Part shown: one piece after another, positions 1,825 through 34,503 of the stretch | How positions within the stretch are numbered: position 1 is the stretch's first letter | How the letters are laid out: each line of letters starts with the position of its first letter | Assembly: GCA_965247235.1 (NCBI GenBank) | Contig: OZ252004.1 | Span: 4,132,883 to 4,196,882 of the forward strand | Direction: 5' to 3' | Length of the DNA: 64,000 nt | Origin: Pyrinomonadaceae bacterium | Lineage (GTDB): Bacteria > Acidobacteriota > Blastocatellia > Pyrinomonadales > Pyrinomonadaceae | The notes under the pieces: generated by a model | The model's database searches: none | Told to the model about the DNA's origin: nothing | Seen by the model: the letters and a program-made list of their open reading frames with translations, nothing else | Translations under genes and position numbers: made by a program

Positions 1825-1833
1825 TAAAAACCT

Positions 1834-3869: not shown

Positions 3870-4080
3870 AAATCCCTTTTTGGTAAAAATATAAATATAC
3901 CAAAATCTTTCAAGTCAAGTCGGAACCGTCTGCGGCAGCGGATGGTTTAACTGTGCATTTAGAAAGTCTGCCCTCATTTCAGATACAATCTTTAATTGCC
4001 GAAAAATGCTTTGACAGACAAAAAAAATGCTTCCGAAATTTTATCGAAAGCATTAACGATTTTTTCCTTTTTCTTGCTTT

Positions 4081-7204: not shown

Positions 7205-7224
7205 AACAAACCCATTTTATTAAA

Positions 7225-7258
7225 TAAAAAAGGCGACTCAAAATTGAATCGCCTTTCA
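7225..7258. terminator. Hairpin terminator between two minus-strand genes
   Basis: aaaaaaggcgactcaaaattgaatcgcctttcag. Confidence 0.55.
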
Positions 7259-7279
7259 GTTAAACAAAATCCTTTTAAT

Positions 7280-7636
7280 TTAAGGATTTTTGGGCTTTTT
7301 CGTCGGTCGCTTGCGTTCGGATTTGCGTTTGCCGCCCGCCATTTCGTATTCGTCGCTGTCTTTGCCGTATTTTGCGCCGACTGCCAGTAAAAAACGCTCG
7401 TTCAAATCGCGCAGTTCCTTTTCCGTTACCTCGAAGCTGTTGGCTTTTTGGTCAACTTGCGAAAGCAGCGTGTTATGTTCTTCCAAAATCTTATAAGCCT
7501 CGTCAATTTTCGCCTCGAACAAGGCGACGGATGAACCGTTTCCCAAATCGAGTTTGCTGTCTATTGATTTAATGCCCGCTAATCGTTCGGCTGCGTCAAC
7601 CATACTTTTAGTCGGTGATTTTTTTGTTCTTGCCAT
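7280..7636 (-). CDS. Hypothetical protein with basic N- and C-terminal tails
   Basis: 118-aa ORF preceded by an iteron-like repeat array. No recognisable domain. Confidence 0.45.
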   Translation of the reverse strand: MARTKKSPTKSMVDAAERLAGIKSIDSKLDLGNGSSVALFEAKIDEAYKILEEHNTLLSQVDQKANSFEVTEKELRDLNERFLLAVGAKYGKDSDEYEMAGGKRKSERKRPTKKPKNP

Positions 7637-7735
7637 TGAATTTTGCTCCTTAAATGCAATCCGTTCTGACCGCCGTTTTCGATTGAAGGCAAACGAAAAC
7701 GGGTTAAAAGACGTTGTTTTTAGATTAAACTAACA

Positions 7736-7935
7736 GTCAATTCGATATTGTGTAAAACATATCGAATAACGTCAAGGCTGAATTCGATTCAGTAGTCATT
7801 AAATTCGATTGACAGAAGACGTTATTCGATTCTATTAACTCTAAATTCGATTGACTCCTCTGTCAATCGAATTTAATGATGATCTTATTCGATTGATAGT
7901 CCACCAAATCGAATATGATGATGACCGAATCAATC
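7736..7935. promoter_or_regulatory. Array of about 10 ATTCGAT(TGA) motifs, direct and inverted, spaced about 20-23 bp, including a perfect palindrome aaattcgattgac..gtcaatcgaattt
   Basis: The motif occurs at about 7741, 7762, 7784, 7803, 7825, 7846, 7865, 7887, 7907 and 7925. It lies upstream of the 7280..7636 gene and 3' of the R-M gene. Confidence 0.5.
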
Positions 7936-8052
7936 TTCGTTATCATTAAATCAACCACAGCATAAAGTAAATCGTTCACAATTACAACAAAAATCTTTTC
8001 ACCGATAAACAGACAACCCGACGCGCATCATTTTCGAGCCAACATCAATCAT

Positions 8053-11000: not shown

Positions 11001-11841
11001 CCCGAAAAATGTCGGCTAACGAATCAACAATCCATTTAATCCGGTCGTCAATCTCCGGTCCGGCGATGTAGCCGAACAGTTTCCGAAGAAACGGATTCGA
11101 TTTCGGAATCAATTCGGCGGCTTCCTGTCGCGTGAATGTGTCCAGACTCTTATCGTGCAGACGCGCCGCAAACATCCCGTAAGCAATCGTCTGCGCGTAA
11201 ACGTCGGCGAACTCCTTTGCTGTAATGTCGTGAATCAAAATCGTTTTGAACGCTTCCATCTGCGCCTTGAGCGTGCTGTTCTCGTCGTTGTCTTCGTCGC
11301 TCATCAAAGACTTTTCAATCACATCGGAAAGTATCCGCGCCTTGCCCGCCATCATTTCCGCGAGTTTCTTACTGCTCGTAATCGTCTGACCGACCCGCGA
11401 AACGAAATCCTTTATCAAGTTGGTAAAAGCAGGGAAGTTGGCGGACAGCGCGACGATGTTGCCGCCGCTGATTTCGCCGATTGCTACGGAAGTCTTAAAT
11501 TGACCGTCGATATAAAGACGAAAGTCGAGATAATCGGTAAAGATAAGATTGTTCAGCGAAGATTTGTAACGGTCGAATTGTTCCTTGTTGCCCGTCTTCT
11601 TCGCGCCGTCCAAATCCTTATCGCCGATGTCTTTCGCTTCGATAAATCCGATTGGAACATCGGCTTTCGTTAATACATAATCCGGCGCACCGCACTTAAT
11701 TCGCTTCGGCTCATTCGTCGCCGCAATGTCCGGCACAAGGCTCTCGATAAGCTGTTTCAAATCGCCTCGATAGGTATGTTCGGTCGCAATCCCGCGTTTA
11801 TATTCACGGGCAATATTGTGTAGGTATTGTTCGATGGTCAT
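8053..11841 (-). CDS. Type IIG (MmeI-like) restriction-modification enzyme: N-terminal PD-ExK nuclease, gamma-class N6-adenine methyltransferase, C-terminal TRD. It carries in-frame palindromic insertions and an embedded DUF559 domain
   Basis: PD..EAK motif (APDYVLTKADVPIGFIEAKD). Motif I ILDPATGTGTFLAE and motif IV VIGNPPYSG. One uninterrupted 1262-aa ORF. Confidence 0.75.
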   Translation of the reverse strand: MTIEQYLHNIAREYKRGIATEHTYRGDLKQLIESLVPDIAATNEPKRIKCGAPDYVLTKADVPIGFIEAKDIGDKDLDGAKKTGNKEQFDRYKSSLNNLIFTDYLDFRLYIDGQFKTSVAIGEISGGNIVALSANFPAFTNLIKDFVSRVGQTITSSKKLAEMMAGKARILSDVIEKSLMSDEDNDENSTLKAQMEAFKTILIHDITAKEFADVYAQTIAYGMFAARLHDKSLDTFTRQEAAELIPKSNPFLRKLFGYIAGPEIDDRIKWIVDSLADIFRATDVDALLKNFGKATQTRDPMIHFYETFLSEYDPKLRKSRGVWYTPEPVVNFIVRAVDDILKTEFNLPQGLADTSKTTIKLKTQSKDKRFAEGVKEYEKEVHRVQILDPATGTGTFLAEVVKQIHAKFAGQQGIWSNYVENHLIPRLNGFELLMASYAMAHLKLDLLLSETGFRPPLTPPSKGGEPEVLNSPPVLGGVSEGRGGKRLQIYLTNSLEEHHPDTGTLWTTWLSDEANEANHIKRDTPVMCVIGNPPYSGESANKGKWIMDLMEDYKKEPGGKENLKERNPKWINDDYVKFLRYGQHFIERNGEGILAFINPHGFLDNPTFRGMRWNLLKTYDKIYTIDLHGNSKKKEVAPDGSADVNVFDIMQGVSINLFIKTGKKKVNELGKVFHYDLYGKREAKYNFLIENSIATILYEELPNVAPNYYFVKQDFSQKQNYEKGFFVSELLSVNNMGITSGDDNDYVAFSKDEFSQNLNYSLIQNISYRPFDNRLIVYDENLLARARSQFMQNMIKPNLAISLVRRSRSDKFISPFIVENLIDKCISSTLDNANIFPLYLYPTENKQTEMFASNSSIRTPNLDLEIVKQIADRLQLTFTNEKETTPSLRATPPETGGEFLEQRSPLKTEDEFLNQNSPPSKGGVREARGGFDSSGTRTIDKINNLPYLKTFRKNLRNNLTPAEASFWKIVQNKNFEGRKFRRQHSVGNYILDFYCPSERLAIELDGEVHFNDAAREYDYERKLFLEHYGIKVLRFENKLVFEELEWMLGVIKSNFGWNKKPPLTPPFEGGELEVSNSPPFEGGVGGGSETFAPIDVLDYIYAVLHSPAYREKYKEFLKIDFPRVPYPKDAAAFWQLVELGGELRRVHLLESPAVERYITQYPVDGDSVVGKIRFELQPPLAPPFEGGELKGKVWINDTQYFEGVPEIAWNFFIGGYQPAQKWLKDRKERPLSFDDIFHYQKIIVALTETDRLMNEIDVIGVC
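8278..8313. mobile_element. Partial hairpin-repeat insertion (family B: CCCCTCC-loop-GGAGGGG plus GGGGTGGT) inside the R-M CDS
   Basis: ctcccctccttcaaaaggaggggcaaggggtggtt, translated in frame as part of ..PPFEGGE... Confidence 0.6.
8581..8664. mobile_element. Family B double-hairpin element (ACCACCCC..2x[CCCCTCC-7nt-GGAGGGG]..GGGGTGGT) inside the R-M CDS, 3' flank of the DUF559 segment
   Basis: accacccccaacccctccttcaaaaggaggggagtttgagacttctagctcccctccttcaaaaggaggggttaggggtggt. Confidence 0.7.
8665..9051 (-). other. DUF559 (Vsr-like endonuclease fold) domain embedded in the R-M ORF, bounded on both sides by family B elements
   Basis: LTPAEASFWKIVQNKNFEGRKFRRQHSVGNYILDFYCPSERLAIELDGEVHFNDAAREYDYERKLFLEHYGIKVLRFENKLV matches the standalone DUF559 family consensus. 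Confidence 0.65.
9052..9194. mobile_element. Family B double-hairpin element with enlarged spacer inside the R-M CDS, 5' flank of the DUF559 segment
   Basis: accaccccgcgcttcgcgcacccctcctttggaaggagggg...ctcccctcctgtttcaggaggggtggcgcgaagcgacggggtggt. Confidence 0.7.
10389..10480. mobile_element. Family B double-hairpin element inside the R-M CDS, within the methyltransferase region
   Basis: accaccccgtccttcggacacccctcctaaaacaggaggggagtttaaaacttccggctcccctccttttgaaggaggggttaggggtggt. It encodes ..PPLTPPSKGGEPEVLNSPPVLGGVSEGRGG... Confidence 0.7.
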
Positions 11842-18728: not shown

Positions 18729-20774
18729 TTAGGCTTTAAGACCCGAATCTTTCTTTTCGCGTTTGATGCCGCCGATCTGGACGAGATTGTCGCCCTTGAT
18801 CTGGTTTTTCTCTAAAACCATCTGGTTGTAGAGTTTTTTCATCATCTGCATTTCTTCGGCGGCGGTTTTCGGTCCCTCCATTTCGGGTTTGTTCGGACGC
18901 GAAAGGTCAACTTGATTCAAGTTGAGATTGTGCGTCGCATCGCCGAGTGTAACTTCTTTGCCGCGAGCGAAAACTTCGTGGCGACCGTGTTCTTTATACC
19001 ACTGTGCAACCGTCGCGTTCTGGTGCATATGTTCGATGATATTTCTCCAGCCGATTCCCGTATTGTATGCACAAAAAGAAATTTCGCCTTCCTGTGTGCC
19101 GTAGGGAATGATGCACATTTCGGTGCGGCGGAAATCATAGTTGAACAAATCCTGAAACCACATTCCCGCGATAAACAGGAAGTTCCAAGGGTCTTGACGA
19201 CGTTTTTCGATGTCTTCAGCCGTGCGCGTCCCGTCAACTTTGCCGTAATCTTTGCCAGAAAGTCCGAATGATTTATCAAACTTCTTCAAGATTCCGCCGA
19301 GCGTCAAACTCGTCGGTGCGCCATACGGATTATAGTTTTTCAAGAGAGCCAAGCCCATCATTATATTTGAAAACCACTTGCCGCGATTGGTGTCGGTGAT
19401 GTGTTTCATATCCGTGACCAACCCCTGAATGTTGAGAAATTGCGGCACGGGAGCCATTTCTTTGGTTTCTTTGTTGACCATCACGGCAGTTCCGACACCG
19501 CAATTCGGGTGACAGCCGCAGGAAACTTGTCCCCAATCGGCGTTTTCGCCGTGAACCACGTCCGCGAAATCGGCAAACGCGCCCATCAATGAAAGCGGAA
19601 ACCAATCGCGCGTCGGTTCGGTGATGCCGACCTGTTTCTGCACGTCCTGCGCGAGATGCGAAAGCGTATAACGCTGCTGCAATCTGCGCTGTTCGGTGAT
19701 ATGTTCGTCGCGCCCGGTGAAACTCACGGGTTGGAAGGCGATGAATGAAATTTTCTTCGGATTTTCGAGCGCGAAACGAATAATCGTGCCGACCTGATCG
19801 TTATTAACGCCGTTGACGAGCGTCGTCACCAGGATAATATCAACGCCGGCTTCGTGCAGATTGTTGATCGCTCTTAATTTAACGTCGAACAAATTGCCGA
19901 TCTGTCTGTGCGAGTTCGCGTCGTTGCCGATTCCGTCAAACTGTAAATAAACGAAACGCAAACCTGCTTCGGCGGCTTCGCGGCAAAATTCTTTTGATTT
20001 AGCAAATTCGATTCCGTTAGTCGCCGCCTGCACCGAGTTGTAACCGACTTTACGCGCATAACGAACTGCGTCTAAAAAGTAAGGTGAAAGCGTCGGTTCG
20101 CCGCCCGAATACTGAACGGACATCTGACGGCGCGGTTTGATCTGAATCGCGTTGTCGAGAATTTCCGAAACGTCTTCCATCGAAAGTTCGTGAACGAATC
20201 CGACTTGGTTCGCGTCCATAAAACACGGGTCGCACATCATATTGCAGCGGTTGGTTAAATCAACCGTCAAGACCGCGCCGCGTCCGTATTTAATGGAAGA
20301 AGTCCCGTGATTGTGCAGCTTTTCGTCGTTGTGCGAATCCATATCGCGTCCCGGAAAAAGGTCTTCGATGTGTTTGAGAAACTTGGAATCAATCGCCATC
20401 AAATCTTCAAAATGTCCGTGATCGGGACAATCTTTAATCATCCAGATTTGACCGTCGCGTTCGATGATCTGCGCTTTGATTTCGCCGACTTTTTCGTTAA
20501 TCAAGGTCGCAACCTCGCGTTTGCCGCTTAAAATATCTTCACGCGCTTCGATCACGCAGTTCGGGCAAAGGCTGTCGGTCATACGCGGAAAACCGAGCGT
20601 CGGCTTGGATTTTTCCCACGATTTCAAAATCGGTTTATCAGCCCATTTCGGGGTAAATGACGGGGACGGTTTGTATTGATTGACCGAACGAATCGCATTA
20701 AATGCGCCTTTGGCGGCAACGGTCAATCCTTTTTCTACATATCTAATGGGTCTCATAAAATTAGTTTTCTCCAA
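18729..20774 (-). CDS. Large radical SAM enzyme (681 aa) with N-terminal zinc-ribbon/rubredoxin-like Cys cluster and C-terminal auxiliary Cys cluster. Possibly a tetraether-lipid-synthase (Tes)-like protein
   Basis: CxxxCxxC motif (CNMMCDPC). N-terminal CPNC...CPDH. C-terminal CGCHPNC. The Tes assignment is inference. Confidence 0.6.
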   Translation of the reverse strand: MEKTNFMRPIRYVEKGLTVAAKGAFNAIRSVNQYKPSPSFTPKWADKPILKSWEKSKPTLGFPRMTDSLCPNCVIEAREDILSGKREVATLINEKVGEIKAQIIERDGQIWMIKDCPDHGHFEDLMAIDSKFLKHIEDLFPGRDMDSHNDEKLHNHGTSSIKYGRGAVLTVDLTNRCNMMCDPCFMDANQVGFVHELSMEDVSEILDNAIQIKPRRQMSVQYSGGEPTLSPYFLDAVRYARKVGYNSVQAATNGIEFAKSKEFCREAAEAGLRFVYLQFDGIGNDANSHRQIGNLFDVKLRAINNLHEAGVDIILVTTLVNGVNNDQVGTIIRFALENPKKISFIAFQPVSFTGRDEHITEQRRLQQRYTLSHLAQDVQKQVGITEPTRDWFPLSLMGAFADFADVVHGENADWGQVSCGCHPNCGVGTAVMVNKETKEMAPVPQFLNIQGLVTDMKHITDTNRGKWFSNIMMGLALLKNYNPYGAPTSLTLGGILKKFDKSFGLSGKDYGKVDGTRTAEDIEKRRQDPWNFLFIAGMWFQDLFNYDFRRTEMCIIPYGTQEGEISFCAYNTGIGWRNIIEHMHQNATVAQWYKEHGRHEVFARGKEVTLGDATHNLNLNQVDLSRPNKPEMEGPKTAAEEMQMMKKLYNQMVLEKNQIKGDNLVQIGGIKREKKDSGLKA

Positions 20775-26172: not shown

Positions 26173-26310
26173 AGTGGTGAGCGGTGAGTGGTGAGTGGAA
26201 GATTAAATTTGTGGTGAATGGTAAATATCAAACGATGAATGAAATCTGAAATCTGAAATCTGGAATGAGAAATTTTCCACTCACCACTCACCACTCACCG
26301 CTCACCACTA
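26173..26310. repeat. Palindromic element, family F (GTGAGTGGTGAG arms) with 3x AAATCTG in the loop. Its right arm encodes the last residues of the DUF1795 gene
   Basis: agtggtgagcggtgagtggtgagtgga is matched by tccactcaccactcaccactcaccgctcaccact. Confidence 0.7.
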
Positions 26311-26726
26311 ACAAAGAAGTTTTCGACGACTTTGCGGAATGCCTGAATGTGTTTGTTAAAATCTTCGACGGTTGCCGTGCCGGTGATGGCGTAGATGTTT
26401 TGGTTGGAGAGGACGAAGGTTTGAACCTGCTGTAAAAATCCGGCTTCGGTTTGAAAACGGTGAAGCTGCCGGCTCGACGGATAACCGTTGAGCGTGTCAT
26501 TGGCGCGGTCGAGCAGTTCAAAATTCGGCAGGGATTCACGCAGCATTTCGAGTTGTTCGCCGACAAAATCTTCGAGACTTTCGTTAGGTTTAACCGGATG
26601 CCGCGTGATGACAATATTAGCGGCAAAATGAATAGCCTCGTCAAATGGCGCAATTAAAGTCAGCATCGTGCGGTCTTCCCAACTTGCGGGAATTACGGTG
26701 GAAATTTCATTATGTTGCAGTTTCAT
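26295..26726 (-). CDS. DUF1795 (EagR/DcrB-like) family protein
   Basis: 143 aa. Pattern IPASWEDRTML.LIAP...NIVITRHPV..NESLEDFVGEQLEML...LPNFELL is consistent with the DUF1795 fold family, assigned from memory. Confidence 0.5.
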   Translation of the reverse strand: MKLQHNEISTVIPASWEDRTMLTLIAPFDEAIHFAANIVITRHPVKPNESLEDFVGEQLEMLRESLPNFELLDRANDTLNGYPSSRQLHRFQTEAGFLQQVQTFVLSNQNIYAITGTATVEDFNKHIQAFRKVVENFFVSGER

Positions 26727-26874
26727 CGTTTGATAATATTTGTTTTGAATTAGCCGAAATAATCGCTGAATAGCTACACAAAAGGCGCGAAAGGCACAAA
26801 AATTATTTACATCGTGAATCTTTTTTGTGTCTTCCGCGCCTTTTAATAAGTTGAAAATCTCATTCGACCGTCAA

Positions 26875-28905
26875 TCAGCCGAAGATCGAAGACAGACTGT
26901 GAACTGCGCCGCCCAACATATTTTTTGCGCCGTCGGCAAGCGTATCGGCGGCGGCGGAAACCGTATTGGAAACATCGCCCGCAAAGTTTGAAACTGCATC
27001 AATTGATTTTGTGACCGCACCGGCGACTACTTTGTCCACGCCGCCCTGACGCATCACCCAATCGGCTGCCATTCCGACTCCGAACCCGACGACCGCGCCG
27101 ACCAATGTTCCTGCGCCGGGAATAATGCTGCCGATTGCCGCGCCTGCCGCCGCGCCCGCCATTCCTGCTCCGACACCGACGACGGCTTCGCCCGTGATCG
27201 TGCCGATTGCCTGTGAACCTGACACCTCTCCGCGATTGTAAGCACCGATTTGATCGTAGGCGGAAAATCCGGCGTTGACGACTCCGCCGATCACTCCTGC
27301 GCCGCCGATTCTGCCGACTGCCGTTCGCGCGACCGAATTAAAAGTCTGCGAAGTAATATTTGACGATTCCGTGCCGGCTAAACGACTGACGAAATTTCGC
27401 GCCGCGCCGTTGGTTGAAAGTCTTTCCAGACCGTTTTCAACTAAACTCGAACGTCCTAAAGTATTCGCAATTTGATTGCCGACGATCTGCTCGCCCGCCG
27501 CGCTGAACGCGCCGACACCGGTTCCGAGAGCCGTTCCCTTGCCGATATTTATTGCCGCGCCGGAATAATCGCCCTGTTTGATCTGGTCGTAAGCCTGAAA
27601 CGTCGAAACCGCCGCCGAAAACGCGCCGCCCATCAACGCGCCGCTGCGGGTTTCGGAAATGAATTGCTGCCTTCCGCTCGTCACCGGAAGTCTCGTCGGC
27701 TGTTCGGCGATTGTCACGGGTGCGCCGGTCGTATGCAAATCCTGCATATCGAAAAACGCCACTTGTCCGCGTTTCGACATTTCCAGAATCGTCGCCGAAC
27801 TGACCGTGTTATCGGTAATAAATTCGCGTGTGCCGACTCTGCCATTGACATTATCCGGGCGCATCGTCGTCCCGTCGCCGGTAAACAGCGGATTAACGCC
27901 CATCGAACGATCCATTTGAGAACGCGCCCGCATTACGTCCTGTTCAGCCGCTGGAAGCGTATCAACAAACCTCTCCGAATTGCTCCACATATCAATTCCC
28001 AAACTTTTAGCTTCATTTAATCTGGCTTCATAATTATAATTCGTGACATCACGCCAGAATGATTCGGGCTTGGTTTGAAATCGTTCAAAGTTATTTTTAT
28101 CTGTTCTTGCCAGATTTGTAATGTTTTTCTCGGTCGGCTGCTGCAATCTGTTTGCCGCCTCTTCGGTGTAAACGATGATTTTGAAGTCTTTCGGGTTGGC
28201 AGAGGCAATATCATCCGCCGTCCAACCAATACGGCTCATCACTTCACGGTAGTCTAGCCGCGAACCCGCCAAATCTTCGACCGGCAGTGACCACGCAATC
28301 GTTTTGCCTTCTCCTTTCGCTGCGTCGTAATAGGCAAGCCGTTGATTCACATCGCTCATCGGTCCGTCGCCGGTTTTAATCATTCGCGCCAGATACTGCG
28401 GTGTTTCGCCGCTTTGCGCCAGATTTCGCACCGCGTTTTGGTCGAGCGTGAATAATCCGCCGTTTCGGGTTGATTCCGAGCGAAGAAAATTATCAGCGTT
28501 TGCAATACTGAAACTCGGTGATTCGCTCGGCTTAACTCCGTATCTGCCGAGAACATTGCGGTATTCGGTCATTGCCTGCTCTGTCAGACGAATAGTGTCA
28601 CCGCCGGCTGCAAAATTTTTGATGCCTTCGTTGATGACGCGGTGATAGGCGATTGAGGCTTCGCGGAATGCCTGTCCGCGAAAAGCAAAATTAGCGTTGG
28701 ACGCGCCCGCCGTCATCGCCGGAAGTAATCTTTCCAGACGGTCGCGCTGCTGATTTCCATAAGTTTGCAGATCGTTACGTCTGCCGATTGGAGAAAAACG
28801 GTCGAGCGGCAACTGTTTCGGTAAAGGCTTAGGTGGCGGCTTCGGCAGTTCAAAAGGTTTGATCCTAAATATATCTTCGTTTCCAATCTTTCTTGGAGGC
28901 GGCAT
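26875..28905 (-). CDS. Large protein (676 aa), Pro-rich N-terminus, no recognisable domain, C-terminal about 230-aa glycine-zipper region (GxxxG/AxxxG runs)
   Basis: ATG at 28905 with AAGGAG 9 nt upstream (the ORF track uses a TTG 18 nt further). Starts 14 nt after the stop of paralog 3. C-terminus GGAGVIGGVVNAGFSAY...GVGAGMAGAAAGAAIGSIIPGAGTLVGAVVGFGVGMAA with an internal AYDQI repeat. Confidence 0.55.
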   Translation of the reverse strand: MPPPRKIGNEDIFRIKPFELPKPPPKPLPKQLPLDRFSPIGRRNDLQTYGNQQRDRLERLLPAMTAGASNANFAFRGQAFREASIAYHRVINEGIKNFAAGGDTIRLTEQAMTEYRNVLGRYGVKPSESPSFSIANADNFLRSESTRNGGLFTLDQNAVRNLAQSGETPQYLARMIKTGDGPMSDVNQRLAYYDAAKGEGKTIAWSLPVEDLAGSRLDYREVMSRIGWTADDIASANPKDFKIIVYTEEAANRLQQPTEKNITNLARTDKNNFERFQTKPESFWRDVTNYNYEARLNEAKSLGIDMWSNSERFVDTLPAAEQDVMRARSQMDRSMGVNPLFTGDGTTMRPDNVNGRVGTREFITDNTVSSATILEMSKRGQVAFFDMQDLHTTGAPVTIAEQPTRLPVTSGRQQFISETRSGALMGGAFSAAVSTFQAYDQIKQGDYSGAAINIGKGTALGTGVGAFSAAGEQIVGNQIANTLGRSSLVENGLERLSTNGAARNFVSRLAGTESSNITSQTFNSVARTAVGRIGGAGVIGGVVNAGFSAYDQIGAYNRGEVSGSQAIGTITGEAVVGVGAGMAGAAAGAAIGSIIPGAGTLVGAVVGFGVGMAADWVMRQGGVDKVVAGAVTKSIDAVSNFAGDVSNTVSAAADTLADGAKNMLGGAVHSLSSIFG

Positions 28906-28919
28906 AATCTTTTTCTCCT

Positions 28920-29501
28920 TCAATTTATAAAATTAGCAAGTTTTTGCTGAATAACGGGACGAATACGGTGCATCTCGTCCATTAATTTAAGTCCTGTTTC
29001 GGGTGTCAAATATAAATCCCAACCGTTTTTCCGAACATCGTCCATCTCCAGAAAACGGGTGTTTGAAATTTGCGTGGTGACAATCGGCTGTCCGACATTG
29101 TTCGGCATCACCGAGTTTTTTCTCACACCTAACTGATCTTTGCCATTAACTATGTCATATTCGTTGAGATCAATCTTTCTCGCCGGTCGTTCGCCGTAAA
29201 TTTCTTCAAGTCTTTGCAATACGCCGTCGAAGTTTCCTAACTCAAACAAAACAGTGCCGCCCCACCAATTGCGGGCGATGTCCCGTTGATAAAGTCTGCG
29301 AACCCGTTCGTCAACTCCTTGAGGAATAATTTTGCCCTGCGGTTTATGAGCAATCGTGCTTTGCACCGAGACGATGAAATCATTGTTCAAAACGCCGAGC
29401 CGATACGAAGTCTGAAATTCTTCACCCTTTTCGATTTCGCTTTGAAACTCGCTCAAAACTTCCATCTGCATTGAATCTATGACTTCGACATTTTCGCTCA
29501 T
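28920..29501 (-). CDS. Hypothetical cytoplasmic protein, tandem paralog 3 of 3 (193 aa)
   Basis: Close paralog of the two upstream genes. Confidence 0.55.
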   Translation of the reverse strand: MSENVEVIDSMQMEVLSEFQSEIEKGEEFQTSYRLGVLNNDFIVSVQSTIAHKPQGKIIPQGVDERVRRLYQRDIARNWWGGTVLFELGNFDGVLQRLEEIYGERPARKIDLNEYDIVNGKDQLGVRKNSVMPNNVGQPIVTTQISNTRFLEMDDVRKNGWDLYLTPETGLKLMDEMHRIRPVIQQKLANFIN

Positions 29502-29554
29502 CTGTTTACATTATCGGCGATTTACGCAAAAAGTTTCCTGATTTTACGATAATT

Positions 29555-30127
29555 TCAAGAAGTTAGCTTTTGTTGAATAACGGGACGAATGCGCTTCATC
29601 TCATCCATCAGTTTCAATCCCGTTTCCGGTGACAGATATAAGTCCCATCCGTTACGTCGGCTGATGTCCATTTCAATTAAACGTGTATTGGATATTTGCG
29701 TCGTCACAATCGGCGCACCGACATTATTCGGCATCACCGAATTTTTCCTTACACCGATTTTATCTTTGCCGTTAATGATGTCGAAATTGTTCAAATCAAT
29801 TTCACGCGCCGGTCGTTCGCCATACATTTCTTCGAGTCTCTGCAATACGCCGTCGAAGTTTTTTAACTCGAACAAAACATCTCCGCCCCACCAATCGCGC
29901 TCGATTAATTTTCTGAAATTTACTTTTCGTTCCTCTTCGTAATTCTCCGGCACAATCTTTCCCTGCGGCTTGAAGGCAATCGTGCTTTGCGAAGTAACAA
30001 TTAAATCGCTGTTTAGAACGCCAAGACGATAGTGTGTCGCAAACCCTTCGTCATCAGTCGTGTCACTTTCAAACTCGCTTAAGATTTCCATTTCTCTGGA
30101 GTCTATCTTTTCAACTTCTTCGTTCAT
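29555..30127 (-). CDS. Hypothetical cytoplasmic protein, tandem paralog 2 of 3 (190 aa)
   Basis: The 53-nt intergenic spacers plus gene 5' ends are near-identical between copies (tttacattatcggcgatttacgcaaaaagtttcctgattttacgataatttcaagaagttagcttttgttgaataacgggacgaatgcgcttcatctc). Confidence 0.55.
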   Translation of the reverse strand: MNEEVEKIDSREMEILSEFESDTTDDEGFATHYRLGVLNSDLIVTSQSTIAFKPQGKIVPENYEEERKVNFRKLIERDWWGGDVLFELKNFDGVLQRLEEMYGERPAREIDLNNFDIINGKDKIGVRKNSVMPNNVGAPIVTTQISNTRLIEMDISRRNGWDLYLSPETGLKLMDEMKRIRPVIQQKLTS

Positions 30128-30180
30128 CTGTTTACATTATCGGCGATTTACGCAAAAAGTTTCCTGATTTTACGATAATT

Positions 30181-30756
30181 TCAAGAAGTTAGCTTTTGTT
30201 GAATAACGGGACGAATGCGCTTCATCTCGTCCATTAGTTTTAATCCGGTTTCCGGCGAAGCGTAAAACCTCCAGCCTCCGTTTTGACTATCATCCAGCTC
30301 AACCAAACGGAAATTGTTAATTTGTGTGGTAACAATCGGTGTGCCAACATTATTGGGCATTACCGAATTCTTGCTGATGGCAATCTGATCTTTGCCGTTG
30401 ACTATATCCAGTTCATTCATATTAATTTCACGCGCCGGTCGTTCGCCATACATTTCTTCTAATCTTTGCAATACGCCGTCGTAATTTTTCAGTTCGAACA
30501 AAACTACGCCACTCCACCAATCGCGCTCGATTATTTTTCTGAATTTTTCTTTTTGTTCCTCTTCAATGTCTGCCGGCACAATTTTCCCCTGCGGCTTAAA
30601 GGCAATCGTAGCCTGCGAAGTAATTATTAAGTCACCATTTAACACGCCAAGACGGTAATGAGTCGCAAATTCCTCTCCCTTTTCAATCTCGCTCTCAAAT
30701 TCGCTCAGGATTTCCATTTCTCTGGAATCTATCTTTTCAACATCTTCATTCATCAC
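30181..30756 (-). CDS. Hypothetical cytoplasmic protein, tandem paralog 1 of 3 (191 aa)
   Basis: Acidic N-terminus. Conserved core shared by all three paralogs (WWGG.VLFELKN(F/Y)DGVLQRLEEMYGERPAREI..N..DI(I/V)NGKD.I..(R/S)KNSVMPNNVG.PIVTTQI). No TM or signal peptide. Confidence 0.55.
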   Translation of the reverse strand: MMNEDVEKIDSREMEILSEFESEIEKGEEFATHYRLGVLNGDLIITSQATIAFKPQGKIVPADIEEEQKEKFRKIIERDWWSGVVLFELKNYDGVLQRLEEMYGERPAREINMNELDIVNGKDQIAISKNSVMPNNVGTPIVTTQINNFRLVELDDSQNGGWRFYASPETGLKLMDEMKRIRPVIQQKLTS

Positions 30757-30902
30757 TTTATATTATCGGCAGATCGTCAAAAAAGTTTCCTGCTTTTTTT
30801 GTTTTCGAGCCGAAAATGATTTTTCGACGGCGGTAAAAATTTTAGCAAAGAAAAAGGCAAACCAATTGCGATTCGCCTTTTTGTCAACTTGCGAGGTAAA
30901 AG

Positions 30903-33098
30903 TTATTTGCCGTCGCCGTTCTTGCTGCCGTTGCCGTCGCCGTTTTTGTTCATTTGGTCGCGGAACAAATTCAGTAAAAGCAAACTTCCGATGCCGCCGC
31001 CGCCTTCGCCGCTGCCGCCGCCCGAAGCCATAATGTCGGGCGTGATGCGAACGCCTTTTTCGCCGATAACTTTGAGCGTTTCGACGAGCGCGACACCGTT
31101 TGCGCCGAGTGCGGCGACTTGTTCCTTGTAGGCGACACCTTGCGCTTCGCCCATCAAGCGGACTTTTTCGGCTTCGGATTTGCCGGTTTCCGAGATGTAA
31201 TAGGCTTCGCCGTCGGCTTCGCGTTTGCGCTGTTCCGAGCGTTTCGCGGAGATTTCGACACCGACCGTCGCTTCCATCAAACTTCGCTGATTGTCGGCTT
31301 GCGAACTGGTTTTTTCGAGTTCGATACGCTTGATTTCGGCTTCTCTTTGCGCGTTGAACATTCCCTGTTTCTGCTCGGCGAGAATTTTTTCGGTCTGCGT
31401 TTTCATCAATTCTTCGGGCAGTTTGATGTGACAAATCAAAACATTGACGACATCAACGTGATATTTCAAAAGGTGCATTCTGACTCTCGCTTCGGCGCGT
31501 TCCTGTTCTTCGTGACGATTTTGCAGATAAGCCATCGCCGAACTTTCCGATGCCTGATTTCTGAAAATCGAATCAATCAGCGGGTGCATCACATTCTGCA
31601 CGAGTTTCTCGGTGCTGCCGATTTTCGCCACCATAAACGGCGCGTCTTCGGGTTTGATGCGAAAAACGACGCGCACTTCGAGCTGCATCGTAAAACCGTC
31701 TTTGGAAATGACCGAAAACGGGTCAAACGAATTTGAAGTGTTTTCCGCCGTCCATTCGACCGTCATATTCGTCGTCGGGATAATAAACGGCGTGGTCGCC
31801 AAAGTGTTGACATAATAACGTCCGGGACCGACGACGGTTTCCTGTATGCCGCGAAAACCTTCCGGCACGACGTAGGCTTCGTGCGCTCCGCTGTCCAATC
31901 TTTTGTCCGCCGGATCGCTTTTGAGTTCGGCTTTGATCTGTTCAATCGTCATATCGTCGCCGTCAACTTTATCCAATTTTTCCGCCGCGATATTGACCTG
32001 TTGTTCTTCTTCGCGCTCGACGCGCTCGCGGATTTTCGCCGCCATCGCTCTGCGGATTTCTTCGCCGGGGTCTTTGCCGACGTTGGAAACAATCACCGCG
32101 ACCTCGCCGGGTTTAACTTCTTTCGCCGAATCGGGAATCACTTTGAACAGCAGCGGATTGATGTAATAGGTTCCGGGCAGCAGAATATCTTTCTGCGGTC
32201 CGCGCTGTCCGCCGTTCGAGATAAAAACATTACTGTCCTGAAAATTGTCGTGTCCCGAAATTTGCGTCGCCACATAATCGCGCGGATCGAGCGGCGCACC
32301 GTCTAATGCTTCAACTAATCCGACCGAATTTTCGCTGATGACGGTTGCGTCAAACAGGCGTATGTTAAAAAGTCCGGGTTTGACTTCGCCGGCATCTTCG
32401 AGCGCGACCGAATTGGTGTGAATACGGTAAGTTCCGGGCGATAAAATCTCGACCTGTGCGCCTTTCTGACCGCCGTTGTAAATAAAACTTTCCGCGTCCT
32501 GAAAATTTTTGTGACCCTGAACGGCTTGCCCGAACAGTCGTCCCTGCGCCAATTGCGAGCCGTCGGCAGATGTCACCACGCCGAGTTTTCCGGTCGGAAT
32601 CGTCGCGGCTTTGGCAATCGAAACTCTGAATAAATACGGGTGAATCGCCCATTTTCCCGGCGGCAGAGTTCGCAGTTGAATGCCCTTCACGCCGCCCTGT
32701 TTGATAAAAGCAATCGGGTCTTGAAAATTATTATGCGCGTTCTGAGCGCGGTCGGGCGCGAAAATCGAGCCGGTCTGCATCGGTTCGCCGTCAATCGCGT
32801 CAATCACGCCGAGTTCGTCCGCGCCGATTTCGACGAGCGGCACTTTTTGAATGACGCGCTCAATCGGATAAAGCACGAAATGCAAGCCGGGTTTTAGCAC
32901 GTCCGCCTGAATCCCGATCTCGCCGTCGGTTGCCACGACGCGCCCCTGAGCCATTTTTTTGCCCGCGTAACGACGCTCTTTAATGCCGACCTCGGTTGCC
33001 CCGACATTAACCAGAAAGCGCGTCACGACATACCAGACGATGCCCAAGCCGACTAAGGCTAAAACGCCTAAAACGATTAAACTTGTTGTGTTATCCAT
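30903..33098 (-). CDS. Flotillin-like SPFH/Band-7 protein (YqiK-like) with three tandem about 95-aa N-proximal repeats
   Basis: N-terminal TM (LIVLGVLALVGLGIVWYVV). Triple repeat (H.NFQD..FI..GG..G.Q...L.PG.Y.I.P.LF). Charged EA-rich coiled-coil C-terminus. Start taken at MDNTT (33098), since the upstream in-frame stretch overlaps a palindromic element. Confidence 0.65.
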   Translation of the reverse strand: MDNTTSLIVLGVLALVGLGIVWYVVTRFLVNVGATEVGIKERRYAGKKMAQGRVVATDGEIGIQADVLKPGLHFVLYPIERVIQKVPLVEIGADELGVIDAIDGEPMQTGSIFAPDRAQNAHNNFQDPIAFIKQGGVKGIQLRTLPPGKWAIHPYLFRVSIAKAATIPTGKLGVVTSADGSQLAQGRLFGQAVQGHKNFQDAESFIYNGGQKGAQVEILSPGTYRIHTNSVALEDAGEVKPGLFNIRLFDATVISENSVGLVEALDGAPLDPRDYVATQISGHDNFQDSNVFISNGGQRGPQKDILLPGTYYINPLLFKVIPDSAKEVKPGEVAVIVSNVGKDPGEEIRRAMAAKIRERVEREEEQQVNIAAEKLDKVDGDDMTIEQIKAELKSDPADKRLDSGAHEAYVVPEGFRGIQETVVGPGRYYVNTLATTPFIIPTTNMTVEWTAENTSNSFDPFSVISKDGFTMQLEVRVVFRIKPEDAPFMVAKIGSTEKLVQNVMHPLIDSIFRNQASESSAMAYLQNRHEEQERAEARVRMHLLKYHVDVVNVLICHIKLPEELMKTQTEKILAEQKQGMFNAQREAEIKRIELEKTSSQADNQRSLMEATVGVEISAKRSEQRKREADGEAYYISETGKSEAEKVRLMGEAQGVAYKEQVAALGANGVALVETLKVIGEKGVRITPDIMASGGGSGEGGGGIGSLLLLNLFRDQMNKNGDGNGSKNGDGK

Positions 33099-33112
33099 TT
33101 TAATTTTTCGGA

Positions 33113-33202
33113 AATTGACAGGGATTAATTGGATAAACGGGATAAAAAATAATACGAATTGATTTAAAAATCCCTTCAAATCTTCTTCATCCCTGTCAAT
33201 TA
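33113..33202. repeat. Family A-related small palindrome between the 181-aa gene and the flotillin gene
   Basis: aattgacagggat...atccctgtcaatt. Confidence 0.5.
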
Positions 33203-33207
33203 TTCGT

Positions 33208-33753
33208 TCACTCTGACTCACGGCGCAGGCGTTTGATTTCCTCTTTTAACCAAAAAGCCGCGCCCGAAGTTCTTTCCTGTTGGGGGAGAATTCGGAGATG
33301 GCTGTCCAACAAATCAGCCAAATCTTTCGCCGTTAAAATTCCCGTCTGTTCGTGCAGGCAAACTTGTATCACACTTTTCGCCGTTTGCGAAAATATTACC
33401 GCCGATTCGCTGTCTGCCGCCAATCTTAACAGTTCGACGGTATTTTGCCGGTTGGTTTGCGCCGCCCAAATTTTTTCGTGATCGCCGACGGCATTGATTC
33501 GTGACGTTTTTTCGGCTTGCTCGGCGGCGATTCGATTTTGAAGTTCGGCTTGTCTGTTTTGAATTTCCGTTTCACGCAATTCTTCGTCCGTCGGTTCAAA
33601 CAGCGAACGATACGGCGGCGGCGCGTCAAATTGGGTTTGTTGATCAACGCCGAGCCTTTTTTGTCGGCGTTTGAGAATCACGGAAAAAGCGAAAACTGCC
33701 GCAGAGCCGACGACGATTATCATTGAGAAGAAAAATATAATAAAGAAAAGCAT
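33208..33753 (-). CDS. Membrane protein with N-terminal TM and coiled-coil, first gene of the flotillin locus
   Basis: 181 aa. N-terminal TM helix MLFFIIFFFSMIIVVGSAAVFAFSVIL. Confidence 0.5.
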   Translation of the reverse strand: MLFFIIFFFSMIIVVGSAAVFAFSVILKRRQKRLGVDQQTQFDAPPPYRSLFEPTDEELRETEIQNRQAELQNRIAAEQAEKTSRINAVGDHEKIWAAQTNRQNTVELLRLAADSESAVIFSQTAKSVIQVCLHEQTGILTAKDLADLLDSHLRILPQQERTSGAAFWLKEEIKRLRRESE

Positions 33754-33965: not shown

Positions 33966-34376
33966 TTACTCGCCAAAAATTTCTTTAATGTTTATTTTCT
34001 CCGTTTCCAAAAAGCGGTTGTTAAAGCGGCGATATTCGAGTTTCGGATTGCCGAAATTGACGAGCAAACCGACTTCGATTTCCGTCGCCTTCAAATAATT
34101 GATTGTTTGAGCATAGTGATCGCCGGTCAGATTACCGACGGTTTTCAGTTCGATTAAAACGCGGTTTTCGACTAAAATATCAACGAAAAATTCTCCGACC
34201 GTCGCGCCGCGAAATTTTACTTTTAACGGAACTTGATTTTCCGCCCGCAAGCCTTTTTGCCGCAGAGCAATCAGCAACGCTTTCTCATAAACCGATTCCA
34301 GAAATCCCGCGCCGAGTTCTTTGCTGACTTCAAAACAAGCCTGCAAAATCTTTCCCGTCAAATCCTCGTGTAACAT
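33966..34376 (-). CDS. GxxExxY-family protein (PD-(D/E)xK nuclease-like fold)
   Basis: MLHEDLTGKILQACFEVSKELGAGFLESVYEKALLIALRQKGLRAENQVPLKVKFRG..VGEFFVDILVENRVLIELK matches the GxxExxY family. Start at 34376. Confidence 0.75.
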   Translation of the reverse strand: MLHEDLTGKILQACFEVSKELGAGFLESVYEKALLIALRQKGLRAENQVPLKVKFRGATVGEFFVDILVENRVLIELKTVGNLTGDHYAQTINYLKATEIEVGLLVNFGNPKLEYRRFNNRFLETEKINIKEIFGE

Positions 34377-34394
34377 AGTTTTTCTCCAAAGAGA

Positions 34395-34503
34395 ATTATC
34401 AGGAATGAAGAGGATAAAGAGGATGAAAACAAAAACATTCATTCTTAAATATTTGATTCCTGCCTTTAAAAATCCCTGTCCATCCTCTTCATCCCTGATA
34501 ATT
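34395..34503. repeat. Family A palindromic element, right flank of the GxxExxY gene
   Basis: attatcaggaatgaagaggataaagaggatgaaaac ... ccatcctcttcatccctgataat. Confidence 0.65.

Follow-up and report, generated by a model that had tools for sequence, protein, structure and literature searches.

A conserved acidobacterial module of small acidic paralogs, a glycine-zipper protein and an Eag-like DUF1795 protein, adjoining a flotillin operon

Seven adjacent genes on the minus strand of a Pyrinomonadaceae genome (positions 26295-33753 of the window, the 64,000-nucleotide stretch of contig OZ252004.1 that was analyzed) raise the question whether they constitute a single, flotillin-headed system and what their products do. 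An earlier note on this DNA had favoured such a system. The whole of our analysis was computational. All ORFs were recovered at the coordinates, sizes and strand that had been reported, including the three paralogs. We refer to the small paralog family as PAR and to the ~680-aa protein as BIG. The seven genes form two units, a flotillin operon and an adjoining PAR-BIG-DUF1795 module. The former, consisting of a 181-aa membrane-protein gene and the flotillin gene, is an ordinary SPFH operon that is a neighbour by chance. The latter is a module conserved in the Pyrinomonadaceae and consists of PAR1-3, BIG and the DUF1795 gene. From upstream to downstream the features are:

33208-33753, minus strand: 181-aa protein with N-terminal TM segment and coiled coil, first gene of the flotillin operon
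30903-33221, minus strand: flotillin/SPFH protein, 772 aa, with triple N-proximal repeat (Band_7, E=8.5e-25)
30181-30753, minus strand: PAR1, 190-aa paralog, matching P0001 (190 aa, 100% identical)
30124-30228, minus strand: junction tract copy A (PAR1 to PAR2), identical to 29498-29602
29555-30127, minus strand: PAR2, 190-aa paralog, sharing 78% identity with PAR1 and 70-71% with PAR3
29498-29602, minus strand: junction tract copy B (PAR2 to PAR3), identical to copy A
28920-29501, minus strand: PAR3, 193-aa putative acidic cytoplasmic partner adjoining BIG, ortholog of the PARs of locus L002
26875-28905, minus strand: BIG, 676-aa modular protein (leader aa 1-70, centre ~70-400, tail ~401-676)
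26780-26845, minus strand: terminator-like hairpin, a 23-bp stem followed by UUUUGUGU, located between the stop codon of BIG and the DUF1795 gene
26295-26726, minus strand: DUF1795 gene, 143 aa, candidate Eag-type chaperone (PF08786, E=3.5e-18)

The genes had been described as tightly spaced, which is correct as to their adjacency but not as to uniform spacing. The gap between flotillin and PAR1 measures 146 nt and contains a stem-loop followed by U's, and the gap between BIG and the DUF1795 gene measures 148 nt and contains the 23-bp-stem hairpin. The RNA fold of 26727-26880 reached -43.8 kcal/mol (z = -4.4), and 0/200 shuffles were as good. A strong stem-loop occurs right behind the BIG stop in almost all related loci, be it with different sequences. 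Both unit borders carry terminator-like structures. Together with the comparison of loci, these structures support the independence of the flotillin operon. Flotillin adjoins the module in only three cases, the window, L002 and L004, which have an M14-peptidase...MFS neighbourhood in common. The side varies (upstream in the window, downstream in L004), and flotillin is missing around the module in all other loci with enough flank. Flotillin is therefore the product of a neighbouring operon and not the head or scaffold that the earlier note had made of it. Of the gene order proposed there, the succession of paralogs, large protein and DUF1795 gene is conserved and the flotillin part is not.

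The composition of the flotillin operon fits the pattern of SPFH/flotillin two-gene operons, such as yqiJK of E. coli and floT with its upstream membrane-protein gene in Bacillus, in which a gene for a small membrane protein extends over the start of a long Band_7/flotillin gene. The 181-aa ORF, with a TM segment at residues 1-30, and the listed flotillin start overlap by 14 nt, and the flotillin possesses a Band_7 domain at residues 450-634 and a hydrophobic segment at 42-75. It is 94% identical to an ORF at the contig end of L002. Unlike in the known operons, the 181-aa protein lacks a match to NfeD or any other family in Pfam and NCBIfam, and the flotillin carries the unusual triple N-proximal repeat noticed before (~80 aa each, at residues 165, 239 and 326; core H-x-NFQD...GG-x-[KR]G-x-Q...PG-x-[YW]).

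The conserved unit itself comprises a PAR array, the BIG gene and the DUF1795 gene, and was found in about 25 loci, all of Pyrinomonadaceae or other Acidobacteriota. In every informative locus (the window, L001-L006, L009-L015 and L017-L026) PAR lies beside BIG, with a DUF1795 gene flanking the block that the two form. The module is acidobacterial and previously undescribed. In six loci (L001, L003/L016, L005, L011, L014 and L026) it resides among genes for a non-flagellar type III secretion system (T3SS), either between sctU and sctD/sctV or adjoining sctN. These clusters also contain sctS, sctT, sctR, sctQ, sctO, sctL and a needle-like gene, and a second DUF1795 gene together with a gene for a 555-634-aa Gly-zipper protein is always located behind sctV. 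This context in the relatives is a key element that the earlier note had missed. Among the genes called in L001-L006, L016 and L027-L029, T6SS families (VgrG, Hcp and others) were absent and T3SS genes were present instead.

Outside T3SS clusters the module was found in the window, L002, L004, L006, L010 and L013, and two of the genomes with such stand-alone modules encode a T3SS elsewhere (L028 in the L006 assembly and P0126 on the L013 chromosome). T3SS genes were not found in the 64-kb window. Similarly, sctV of the 4,753,259-bp contig of this genome was found neither among the best 120 matches (down to 62% identity) nor among the members of 20 clusters. Because of this missing sctV, the assumption that BIG is exported by a T3SS in this particular organism could be wrong.

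The PAR genes repeat with an exact period of 626 nt, and their two 53-nt spacers, described before as near-identical, are identical at 53/53 positions. An element CAGGAAACTTTTT...GCCGATAAT is present in both spacers and also upstream of PAR1, whose ATG lies at 30753, one codon behind the GTG with which the listed ORF begins (30181-30753/6). The earlier note took these similarities for recent tandem amplification, a reading that does not hold. The three proteins are only 67-78% identical to each other, and with a dS of 1.2-2.2 the paralogs are ancient. The longest identical run in the array is 105 nt and restricted to the junction tract (which runs from the final 48 nt of PAR1 through the stop codon and the 53-nt spacer to the first base of the start codon of PAR2), within genes that are saturated at synonymous sites. 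Such identity points to either local gene conversion or a constrained regulatory element as its probable cause. PAR1-3 are under purifying selection. PAR1 and PAR2 are intact (dN/dS 0.11-0.15; dS of PAR2 1.2-1.6) and have no matching BIG in cis. PAR3 is 84-85% identical to the two PARs of the closest relative, L002, and the corresponding values for PAR1 and PAR2 are 63-69%. Across the loci the copy number, a check suggested in the earlier note, varies from 1 to 8. A PAR-family gene is located directly upstream of BIG in 17 loci and downstream in one, and no PAR-only 'orphan' loci were seen apart from the BIG loci. The proteins are acidic (pI 4.7-5.1; PAR3 5.1), of 22 kDa and devoid of TM segments; the acidic N-terminus is modelled as part of the fold, in a structure model that is poor (pLDDT 50). 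They showed no homology to families of immunity proteins or chaperones. Only 11 relatives of PAR1-3 and 18 of BIG were recovered among 5.8 billion clusters, and 35 representatives among 1.84 billion. Neither family matched Pfam, PDB or PADLOC, in line with what had been noted before, and both are undescribed.

The ATG of BIG lies 14 nt past the PAR3 stop, as reported earlier, and is preceded by an AAGGAG Shine-Dalgarno sequence; an alternative TTG start at 28923 would yield 682 aa. The Pro-rich N-terminus and the absence of a recognisable Pfam or NCBIfam domain were likewise confirmed, as was the Gly-zipper C-terminal region. The leader carries a YGNQQRDRLERL motif. The centre is confidently folded as a large globular alpha/beta domain, which varies between strains and has no match among solved (PDB) structures, nor with a known toxin or enzyme. 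The helical tail (residues 401-676) consists for 34% of Gly and Ala, with many small-xxx-small motifs, and includes a hydrophobic hairpin of 45 aa at 574-618 (helix-PGAG-helix, rich in GxxxG/A). Weak Gly-zipper_Omp matches were obtained for 7/18 family members, and BIG is under purifying selection in this genome. The mean identity across loci is 59% for residues 401-676 and 43% for 131-400, and PAR identity follows the BIG centre (Spearman 0.66) and not the tail (0.28). The two units within the L006 genome illustrate this, since identity between them amounts to 27% for the PARs, 29% for the centres and 64% for the tails. In BIG, then, the C-terminal Gly-zipper hairpin is constant and the centre is variable, and PAR co-varies with that centre.

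The same terminal modules also occur around a different core. L002 encodes a 581-aa sibling whose leader motif is BIG-like, whose core is a Peptidase_M91 domain (1.7e-11) and whose tail is 50% identical to that of BIG and has the same HSLSSIFG ending, in other words an NleD-like protease between the N- and C-terminal modules of BIG. A 258-aa partner encoded downstream of it is conserved in L024. The first few residues of a T3SS-cluster protein with an EndoU-like end loosely resemble the BIG leader, a weak similarity. In L006, L013 and L025, N-terminal fragments and truncated copies of BIG are found within PAR arrays upstream of an intact BIG; the window contains extra PAR genes and no BIG fragment.

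The DUF1795 protein matches PF08786 (DcrB/DUF1795) with 66 bits against a cut-off of 27 bits, and the DUF1795 assignment of the earlier note stood up to this profile search. Its best solved relative is EagT6 (6xrf/1tu1; phmmer E=4.4e-7, full length), and there is a weaker match to SciW (0.03); the family profile reaches 5e-9. It has a pI of 5.2 and contains no TM segment, no hydrophobic N-terminal segment and, unlike the lipoprotein DcrB, no signal peptide, as befits a cytoplasmic Eag protein of ~145 aa. The residues of EagT6 that contact transmembrane helices are S37, V39, Q58, L66, L98, Q102 and F104 (PMC7773334), and the aligned residues are N37, V39, Q58, L66, L98, Q102 and F104. N37, Q58, Q102 and F104, which coincide with these contacts, do not vary among 14 family members. 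In 16/16 informative loci the gene adjoins the PAR-BIG block as a flanking gene. The protein is indeed Eag-like, and BIG would make a plausible hydrophobic client for it. The only known role of Eag proteins is that of chaperones for exported effectors (PMC7773334).

Based on the above, the module is best explained by a logic like that of toxin and immunity, and we consider the chances about even that BIG acts as an effector that is exported and inserts into membranes, served by an Eag chaperone and by PAR partners that resemble immunity proteins, and probably linked to a T3SS. BIG would then consist of three parts: a leader of ~65 aa, common to the NleD-like sibling, a variable and independently folded central 'payload', and the C-terminal Gly-zipper hairpin. 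The DUF1795 protein would grip the hairpin in the cytoplasm, which would keep BIG soluble and prevent it, ahead of export, from inserting into the membrane of the producer itself. Export would most likely proceed via the non-flagellar type III secretion system of the lineage, and after delivery the hairpin may insert into the target membrane and carry or anchor the payload. Acidic PAR may bind the central domain of the matching BIG variant and most likely neutralises it like an immunity protein, a role resembling that of a class I chaperone being the second choice. PAR1 and PAR2 could represent retained 'orphan' partners for BIG variants from other strains. Several points argue against this explanation. 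The usual order in toxin systems is toxin then immunity, and the PAR genes are placed upstream of BIG. The classical targets of NleD-family proteases are eukaryotic, and immunity proteins are not required in that setting. Further points are the missing sctV and T3SS genes, the lack of homology and the poor model of PAR, the absence of PAR-only loci and the unmatched central domain. Finally, two Gly-zipper proteins with dedicated chaperones per T3SS cluster would also suit a translocon.

According to the latter reading, BIG and the 555-634-aa Gly-zipper protein would be the two hydrophobic, pore-forming translocators of a Pyrinomonadaceae injectisome, with DUF1795 proteins in place of TPR class II chaperones, PARs as accessory chaperones or tip-like partners, and the window copy as a translocon gene block set apart from its T3SS cluster. 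We consider this unlikely, as BIG matched no T3SS translocator family in Pfam, NCBIfam or PDB sequences and no translocator structure, its large globular centre varies by strain and co-varies with PAR, and the sibling carries an M91 protease on the same leader and tail. Moreover, the truncated BIG copies and PAR arrays resemble displaced cassettes, the acidic PAR N-terminus is modelled within the fold, unlike in a secreted tip protein, and this genome's contig yielded no T3SS.

That same absence, combined with the purifying selection on BIG, would rather suit two readings without secretion. The one put forward in the earlier note is a flotillin-organised, self-contained toxin/immunity or anti-phage system, in which BIG forms pores in the producer's own membrane and is checked by PAR and the DUF1795 protein. 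Glycine zippers occur in pore-forming toxins and the flotillin operon does adjoin the module in three loci. A glycine zipper has been described in a T6SS effector as well (PMC10240207). Nevertheless, this reading is very unlikely considering the inconstant presence and side of flotillin, the terminator-like structures between the units, the lack of a membrane immunity protein, the fact that the Gly-zipper tail is constant and the soluble centre variable, and the strong enrichment of the family in T3SS clusters. The PADLOC models gave no match in the window (the best sub-threshold hit, LeoB, reached 17 bits on the Gly-rich tail of BIG), and the neighbouring genes are housekeeping genes, with one distant Type ISP enzyme and no defence island. 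The toxin/immunity part of the earlier proposal is retained as a logic and its anti-phage defence part found no support. In the other reading BIG is anchored by its tail in the inner membrane of the producer and has a housekeeping or regulatory function, targeted by the DUF1795 protein and regulated by PAR via its cytoplasmic domain, the T3SS link reflecting assembly or regulation of the apparatus instead of secretion. The C-terminal TM hairpin and the N-terminal bulk, if cytoplasmic, agree with a tail-anchored topology, and purifying selection extends to all genes. Even so, we find this hardly probable, since the family is tiny and patchy, unlike a housekeeping gene, copy numbers vary, copies are truncated and variants are swapped, and BIG has its leader motif and tail in common with an effector-type protease. 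The resemblance to the protein with the EndoU-like end weakly points the same way, and Eag proteins have been linked to exported effectors only (PMC7773334).

Returning to the exported effector as the preferred reading, the closest parallel is provided by the Eag/prePAAR effector/immunity modules of T6SSs, like EagT6-Tse6-Tsi6 and SciW-Rhs1 (PMC7773334, PMC12881460). Both have a small cytoplasmic DUF1795 protein with conserved residues for contacting transmembrane helices, encoded beside a large protein with GxxxG-rich helices and a small matching partner gene, and by analogy the logic may be the same: hydrophobic helices are shielded until export and then used at the target membrane. The differences are that the TM helices of BIG are C-terminal instead of N-terminal, that a Pro-rich leader takes the place of a prePAAR motif or PAAR domain, that the payload is central and not C-terminal, that the partner genes are upstream in arrays, and that the context in relatives is a T3SS, with no T6SS gene nearby.

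Polymorphic toxin loci with orphan toxin-immunity cassettes, such as CDI and Rhs (Zhang et al. 2012, PMC3482391), likewise combine a constant trafficking part with a variable one that changes in step with a small gene next to it, harbour extra small-gene arrays among truncated toxin fragments (as in L006, L013 and L025) and swap variants between strains. The module is their mirror image, with the constant part at the C-terminus and the orphan units stacked upstream; furthermore, the variable domain of BIG is not a known toxin, PAR is a putative immunity protein, and classical polymorphic toxins do not use a T3SS (PMC3482391). With the hydrophobic translocators and class II chaperones of T3SSs (YopB/YopD-LcrH, IpaB/IpaC-IpgC, EspD/EspB-CesD) BIG shares its size and TM hairpin and, in the six loci with T3SS genes around the module, also the location in a T3SS cluster beside a chaperone gene and the occurrence of two such proteins per cluster. 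It lacks sequence or profile similarity to them, its chaperone is a DUF1795 and not a TPR protein, its globular domain is large and variable, its partner genes are multi-copy, and the copy in the window is not part of a T3SS cluster. Finally, like the class I chaperones of T3SSs, PAR is a small, acidic and presumably cytoplasmic protein encoded beside the putative substrate, as it adjoins BIG in all loci.

All seven minus-strand reading frames that the earlier note had described were recovered in the ORF map:

33208-33753, minus strand: gene of a 181-aa protein (ORF)
30903-33221, minus strand: flotillin/Band_7 protein, 772 aa (Band_7, E=8.5e-25)
30181-30753, minus strand: PAR1, first of three ~190-aa paralogs
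29555-30127, minus strand: PAR2
28920-29501, minus strand: PAR3
26875-28905, minus strand: BIG, 676 aa (ORF)
26295-26726, minus strand: DUF1795 protein, 143 aa (PF08786, DcrB/DUF1795; 66 bits against a cut-off of 27 bits)

The flotillin carries the reported triple repeat, with three units of ~80 aa (core NFQD...GG-x-KG...PG-x-Y), and the three paralogs are indeed related, being 67-78% identical and recurring with an exact period of 626 nt, with two spacers that match at 53 of 53 positions. BIG has an SD-preceded ATG 14 nt past the PAR3 stop and the Gly-rich C-terminus ascribed to it (34% Gly+Ala over the last 276 residues, hydrophobic hairpin at 574-618). The description 'tightly spaced' calls for a qualification at two intervals, the 146-nt flotillin-PAR1 gap, which contains a U-tailed stem-loop, and the 148-nt BIG-DUF1795 gap, which contains a hairpin with a 23-bp stem (z = -4.4). 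For none of the seven proteins did a match above noise emerge from PADLOC, PHROGs or NCBIfam. The sole defence-type gene seen in the window encodes a 1262-aa Type ISP restriction-modification enzyme (8053-11841, minus strand; Type_ISP_C 2.7e-71, N6_Mtase, Eco57I, DUF559), 15 kb from the locus and with housekeeping neighbours (PEPCK, radical SAM, PGM). A GxxExxY / PD-(D/E)XK_3 protein (33966-34442, minus strand, E=2e-39) is encoded between an M14 peptidase gene and the flotillin operon, and no such gene occurs at the corresponding place in related locus L004.

The PAR family has 11 relatives among 5.8 billion clusters, and when 1.84 billion proteins were scanned exhaustively, 35 representatives reached E<1e-3; none of the 30 members scanned for Pfam domains has one. 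For BIG, 18 relatives were obtained. Genome and metagenome scans added loci L007-L026, of which L017-L026 are metagenome contigs; gene order at the loci was mapped using called genes plus our own ORF/BLAST labels. The loci from the genome collection (L007-L015) all belong to Pyrinomonadaceae, Pyrinomonadales or Acidobacteriota. A PAR gene lies immediately upstream of BIG in 17 loci and downstream in one (L017), and all 16 informative loci have a DUF1795 gene flanking the PAR-BIG block. The module of PAR array, BIG and DUF1795 gene is conserved across loci, with a PAR copy number, the count suggested in the earlier note, that ranges from 1 to 8 (eight in L013, at least five in L025, one of them partial where the contig ends, four in L026). 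Conservation of gene order does not extend to the flotillin, which had been placed at the head of the locus: it adjoins the module only in the window, L002 (where a contig-end ORF is 94% identical to the window flotillin) and L004 (where it lies downstream of the DUF1795 gene, not upstream). All three share an M14-peptidase...MFS neighbourhood; in L013 the M14 neighbour is present and the flotillin absent. Given that flotillin adjacency is confined to genomes with this neighbourhood, the flotillin pair is a neighbour inherited with that chromosomal region and no component of the module, which corrects the idea of flotillin as organiser of the locus.

The PARs are acidic (pI 4.7-5.1) 22-kDa proteins without TM segments or signal peptides. 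Their supposed recent amplification is ruled out by pairwise dS values of 1.2-2.2 (dN/dS 0.11-0.15). PAR3, which adjoins BIG, is 84-85% identical to both PARs of L002, inside the 83-94% range of neighbouring genes, and PAR1 and PAR2 are 63-69% identical to them; judged by these identities PAR3 is the orthologue of both. Identical DNA is found as a 105-nt tract per unit junction, which runs from the last 48 nt of one gene through its stop codon and the spacer to base 1 of the start codon that follows; it reflects either gene conversion acting locally or constraint on a regulatory element. Each PAR start codon is preceded, at 3-4 nt, by the end of a shared element, CAGGAAACTTTTT-(9-11 nt)-GCCGATAAT(A/G)TAAA:

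30757-30800: element before PAR1
30128-30180: element before PAR2
29502-29554: element before PAR3

Since PAR1, which has no duplication junction in front of it, is preceded by the element as well, each copy may have its own promoter, and the element may be that promoter, with very short leaders. Counts of sigma-70 promoter and terminator patterns across the region were not above shuffle controls, and the sigma-70 pattern scan did not flag the element.

In L006, L013 and L025 the PAR array contains N-terminal BIG fragments or a truncated BIG gene, in each case upstream of the intact gene. In L013 (3582-12888) eight tandem PARs of two alternating subtypes (45-80% identical) precede one BIG, with an N-terminal BIG fragment at 7945-8745, and the array directly follows an M14 peptidase gene, which also flanks the window locus. 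The possibility that PARs are divergent Eag proteins was rejected (hhalign against the DUF1795 family, probability 0.3%). Intact PARs that lack a matching BIG in cis and are under purifying selection are easier to explain as immunity-like proteins than as chaperones. Against immunity count the position upstream of BIG, the fact that no PAR-only loci were seen, and the lack of a match to known immunity or chaperone families.

The AF2 model of BIG is confident for residues ~70-400 (pLDDT 80-94), which comprise a long helical hairpin followed by an alpha/beta domain; the Pro-rich leader and the Gly-rich tail are poorly modelled. Among 13 loci the tail (401-676) shows the highest conservation (59% mean identity) and the centre (131-400) is the most variable region compared (43% mean, and 26-30% between two types). 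Identity between the PARs next to BIG correlates with that of the centre (Spearman 0.66) rather than that of the tail (0.28). In L006, a single genome with two units, the PARs are 27% identical, the centres 29% and the tails 64%; the long PAR type accompanies one BIG type, the short PAR type the other. BIG has a constant tail and a variable centre, with which PAR co-varies. Similar ends were encountered around a different core:

L002:1565-4217, between the flotillin and PAR genes: M91 sibling of BIG, 581 aa, with leader, Peptidase_M91 core and BIG-like tail, and the 258-aa gene downstream of it

The leader of this sibling is BIG-like (MPPRI..., GNQQKFRL), its core is a Peptidase_M91 of NleD/HopH1-like type (HELSH, 1.7e-11), and its tail is 50% identical to the Gly-zipper tail of BIG, both ending in ...GGAVHSLSSIFG. 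A 258-aa gene follows, and the pair is kept in a metagenome contig (L024:1-1984; 69% and 32% identity); the corresponding place in the window is empty. As the same leader and tail surround either an M91 core or the BIG centre, they behave as carrier modules and the centre as an exchangeable payload. An N-terminal motif, M-x(1-3)-[KR]-[IV]-[DEGT], is shared by BIG, the M91 sibling, an EndoU-like protein and one more cluster protein, with one false match in 139 genes, but it was defined post hoc and deserves little weight. The BIG and PAR profiles gave no match to PDB sequences.

For the DUF1795 protein the best solved relatives are EagT6 (6xrf/1tu1; E=4.4e-7; residues 7-136 versus 8-136) and SciW, and the profile of the family (14 members) reaches 5e-9. 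The EagT6 residues that contact the TM helices of the effector are S37, V39, Q58, L66, L98, Q102 and F104 (Ahmad et al., PMC7773334). They align to N37, V39, Q58, L66, L98, Q102 and F104, and N37, Q58, Q102 and F104 belong to the few columns that do not vary within the family. No signal peptide was found in the protein. The Eag homology and the conserved contact residues identify it as a predicted Eag-type chaperone, so that the 'EagR-like' label was right. A long stem-loop follows the BIG stop in nearly every locus (window 26780-26845 and the BIG-DUF1795 spacers of L002, L004, L006, L010, L012, L013, L020 and L026), with sequences that are unrelated between loci. It is likely a terminator or transcript-stabilising hairpin, in which case the chaperone gene may be transcribed separately. 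Tandem repeats span the DUF1795 gene end and 3' flank (26241-26309), with GGTGAG(C/T) x4 across the stop codon and then CAGATTT x3.

In relatives the module is linked to a non-flagellar T3SS. It lies among sctN, sctU, sctD-like, sctV, sctS, sctT and YscO-like sctO genes in L001, L003/L016, L005, L011, L014 and L026, and further clusters contain sctR, fliO, sctQ (SepQ_C), sctL, TPR proteins and a weak needle-protein match. Close homologues of the SctV are named 'type III secretion system export apparatus subunit SctV [Pyrinomonadaceae bacterium]' by NCBI. In every cluster that reaches far enough, except L029, sctV is directly followed by a second DUF1795 gene and a protein with a Gly-zipper tail, in fixed order:

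L001:16002-20369; L016:10001-14385; L027:4952-9557; L028:7331-11936: sctV, 141-aa DUF1795 gene, 555-634-aa protein with Gly-zipper C-terminus

This is a second chaperone-client pair, without a PAR gene; its client is 26% identical to BIG residues 220-376. Considering that a ~35-kb T3SS cluster amounts to about 1% of these genomes and that about five independent loci of the 12 lie inside one, the module occurs there far beyond chance, though the loci are phylogenetically related. Stand-alone modules with a T3SS elsewhere were found in the L006 assembly (GCA_038200355.1, via L028) and on the L013 chromosome (via protein P0126). In L029 (6429-18012), a Pyrinomonadaceae-type T3SS cluster, a DUF1795 gene lies beside sctN together with a phospholipase-like 308-aa gene, and there is no PAR-BIG block, so the module is not fixed in every T3SS cluster. 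For the window itself, T3SS cluster genes gave no tblastn match in the 64 kb, and no SctV on the 4,753,259-bp contig of its genome appeared among the best 120 matches, the last of which are 62% identical, nor was one present among the members of 20 clusters. For this organism, the T3SS reading has its principal weakness here, as no T3SS was found for the genome.

In L005 (1-19100) the T3SS cluster (sctU 7036-8109, sctN 19263-20573) is interleaved with classical polymorphic-toxin cassettes: RNase_A_bac, two WHH/Colicin-DNase, CdiA_C, EndoU, AHH and Tox-REase-5, with CdiI_2, Imm11 and small genes without assigned family as partners. A Pro-rich pre-toxin linker is common to several cassettes and a 77-aa N-terminus to two long toxins; no known trafficking domain was found. 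Beside the L001 cluster (1644-3904) lies the gene of a 600-aa protein with homologues in L012/L019 and L021. It starts with MTNKIGN..., similar to MPPPRKIGN of BIG, and its C-terminal end is an EndoU-like nuclease that scores 23.7 bits, just below the Pfam cut-off of 25.3. Its gene is followed by a 151-aa gene and adjoined by that of a lipase-like alpha/beta hydrolase (321 aa).

On balance, a chaperoned, exported and membrane-inserting BIG with PAR partners seems to us about as probable as its opposite. In the steps that we infer, which comprise both binding events, the export, the target and the toxicity, BIG would be made in the cytoplasm, where an Eag-type dimer would clamp its helix-PGAG-helix Gly-zipper hairpin and so prevent aggregation and insertion into the membrane of the producer, while a PAR would bind the central domain of the matching BIG variant. 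BIG would then be exported, most likely by the T3SS of the lineage, and its tail would insert into the target membrane to anchor or translocate the payload; PAR1 and PAR2 would guard against BIG variants of neighbouring strains. The presence of two chaperoned Gly-zipper proteins per cluster would also fit a translocon formed by BIG and the second of these, but the variable globular centre, the M91 sibling and the orphan-like arrays do not, making this unlikely. The self-contained toxin or defence system organised by flotillin, as initially proposed, survives mainly because no T3SS was found in the genome of the window; with a flotillin linkage that is not conserved and an empty PADLOC scan we consider it very improbable. 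We would put equally little trust in BIG as a tail-anchored housekeeping protein, which is at odds with its rarity, the copy-number dynamics and the effector-type sibling.

The favoured reading, of an exported BIG with PAR partners, can be extended, tentatively and with more doubt than confidence, to a Pyrinomonadaceae T3SS that serves as an inter-microbial weapon, with polymorphic effectors that are held by Eag chaperones borrowed from the T6SS and have a Gly-zipper tail of their own for membrane translocation, immunity provided by PAR arrays and nuclease cassettes as further cargo. The toxin/immunity cassettes among the sct genes of L005 and the EndoU-like protein beside the L001 cluster lend it some support, yet the extended reading is speculative, including its nuclease cargo (WHH, AHH, EndoU, CdiA-CT and Tox-REase-5 with CdiI_2 and Imm11, among sct genes in L005/L001). 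Classical polymorphic toxins have been stated not to use the T3SS (Zhang et al., PMC3482391). A polymorphic toxin system delivered by a T3SS would be the first of its kind, and its Eag chaperones the first outside the T6SS. Should the reading of the module hold, it would bring the chaperone-TMD principle to a second secretion system, give a testable handle on the role of acidobacterial injectisomes, and define PAR and the central domain of BIG as new protein families, neither with a recognisable relative of solved structure. In full-text searches of one literature library, no paper linked DUF1795/Eag proteins to a T3SS or dealt with T3SS delivery between bacteria. Looser searches for a T3SS in Acidobacteria, Pyrinomonadaceae or Blastocatellia gave no relevant paper among those listed.

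To our knowledge, Eag chaperones have been described solely in the T6SS, where they serve the N-terminal TMDs of PAAR effectors. The module reads as a set of chaperone, effector and partner that belongs to a contact-dependent secretion system and shows the dynamics of polymorphic toxins; in it, two new families are joined to a borrowed T6SS-type chaperone. Its interest lies in the combination of an Eag-type chaperone with C-terminal Gly-zipper helices and a mirror-image polymorphic layout, linked to the T3SS clusters of abundant soil Acidobacteria. Canonical Eag clients possess a prePAAR motif and a PAAR domain, whereas BIG has neither; their TMDs are N-terminal, whereas the hydrophobic helices of BIG are C-terminal; and the linked machinery is a T6SS in the known systems and a T3SS in the relatives of the module. 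The proposed mechanism would parallel both the Eag/TMD logic of T6SS effectors (PMC7773334) and the glycine-zipper-dependent translocation of Tde1 (PMC10240207). The BIG fragments within PAR arrays mirror, in reverse orientation, the arrays of orphan toxin fragments and immunity genes at CDI and Rhs loci (PMC3482391).
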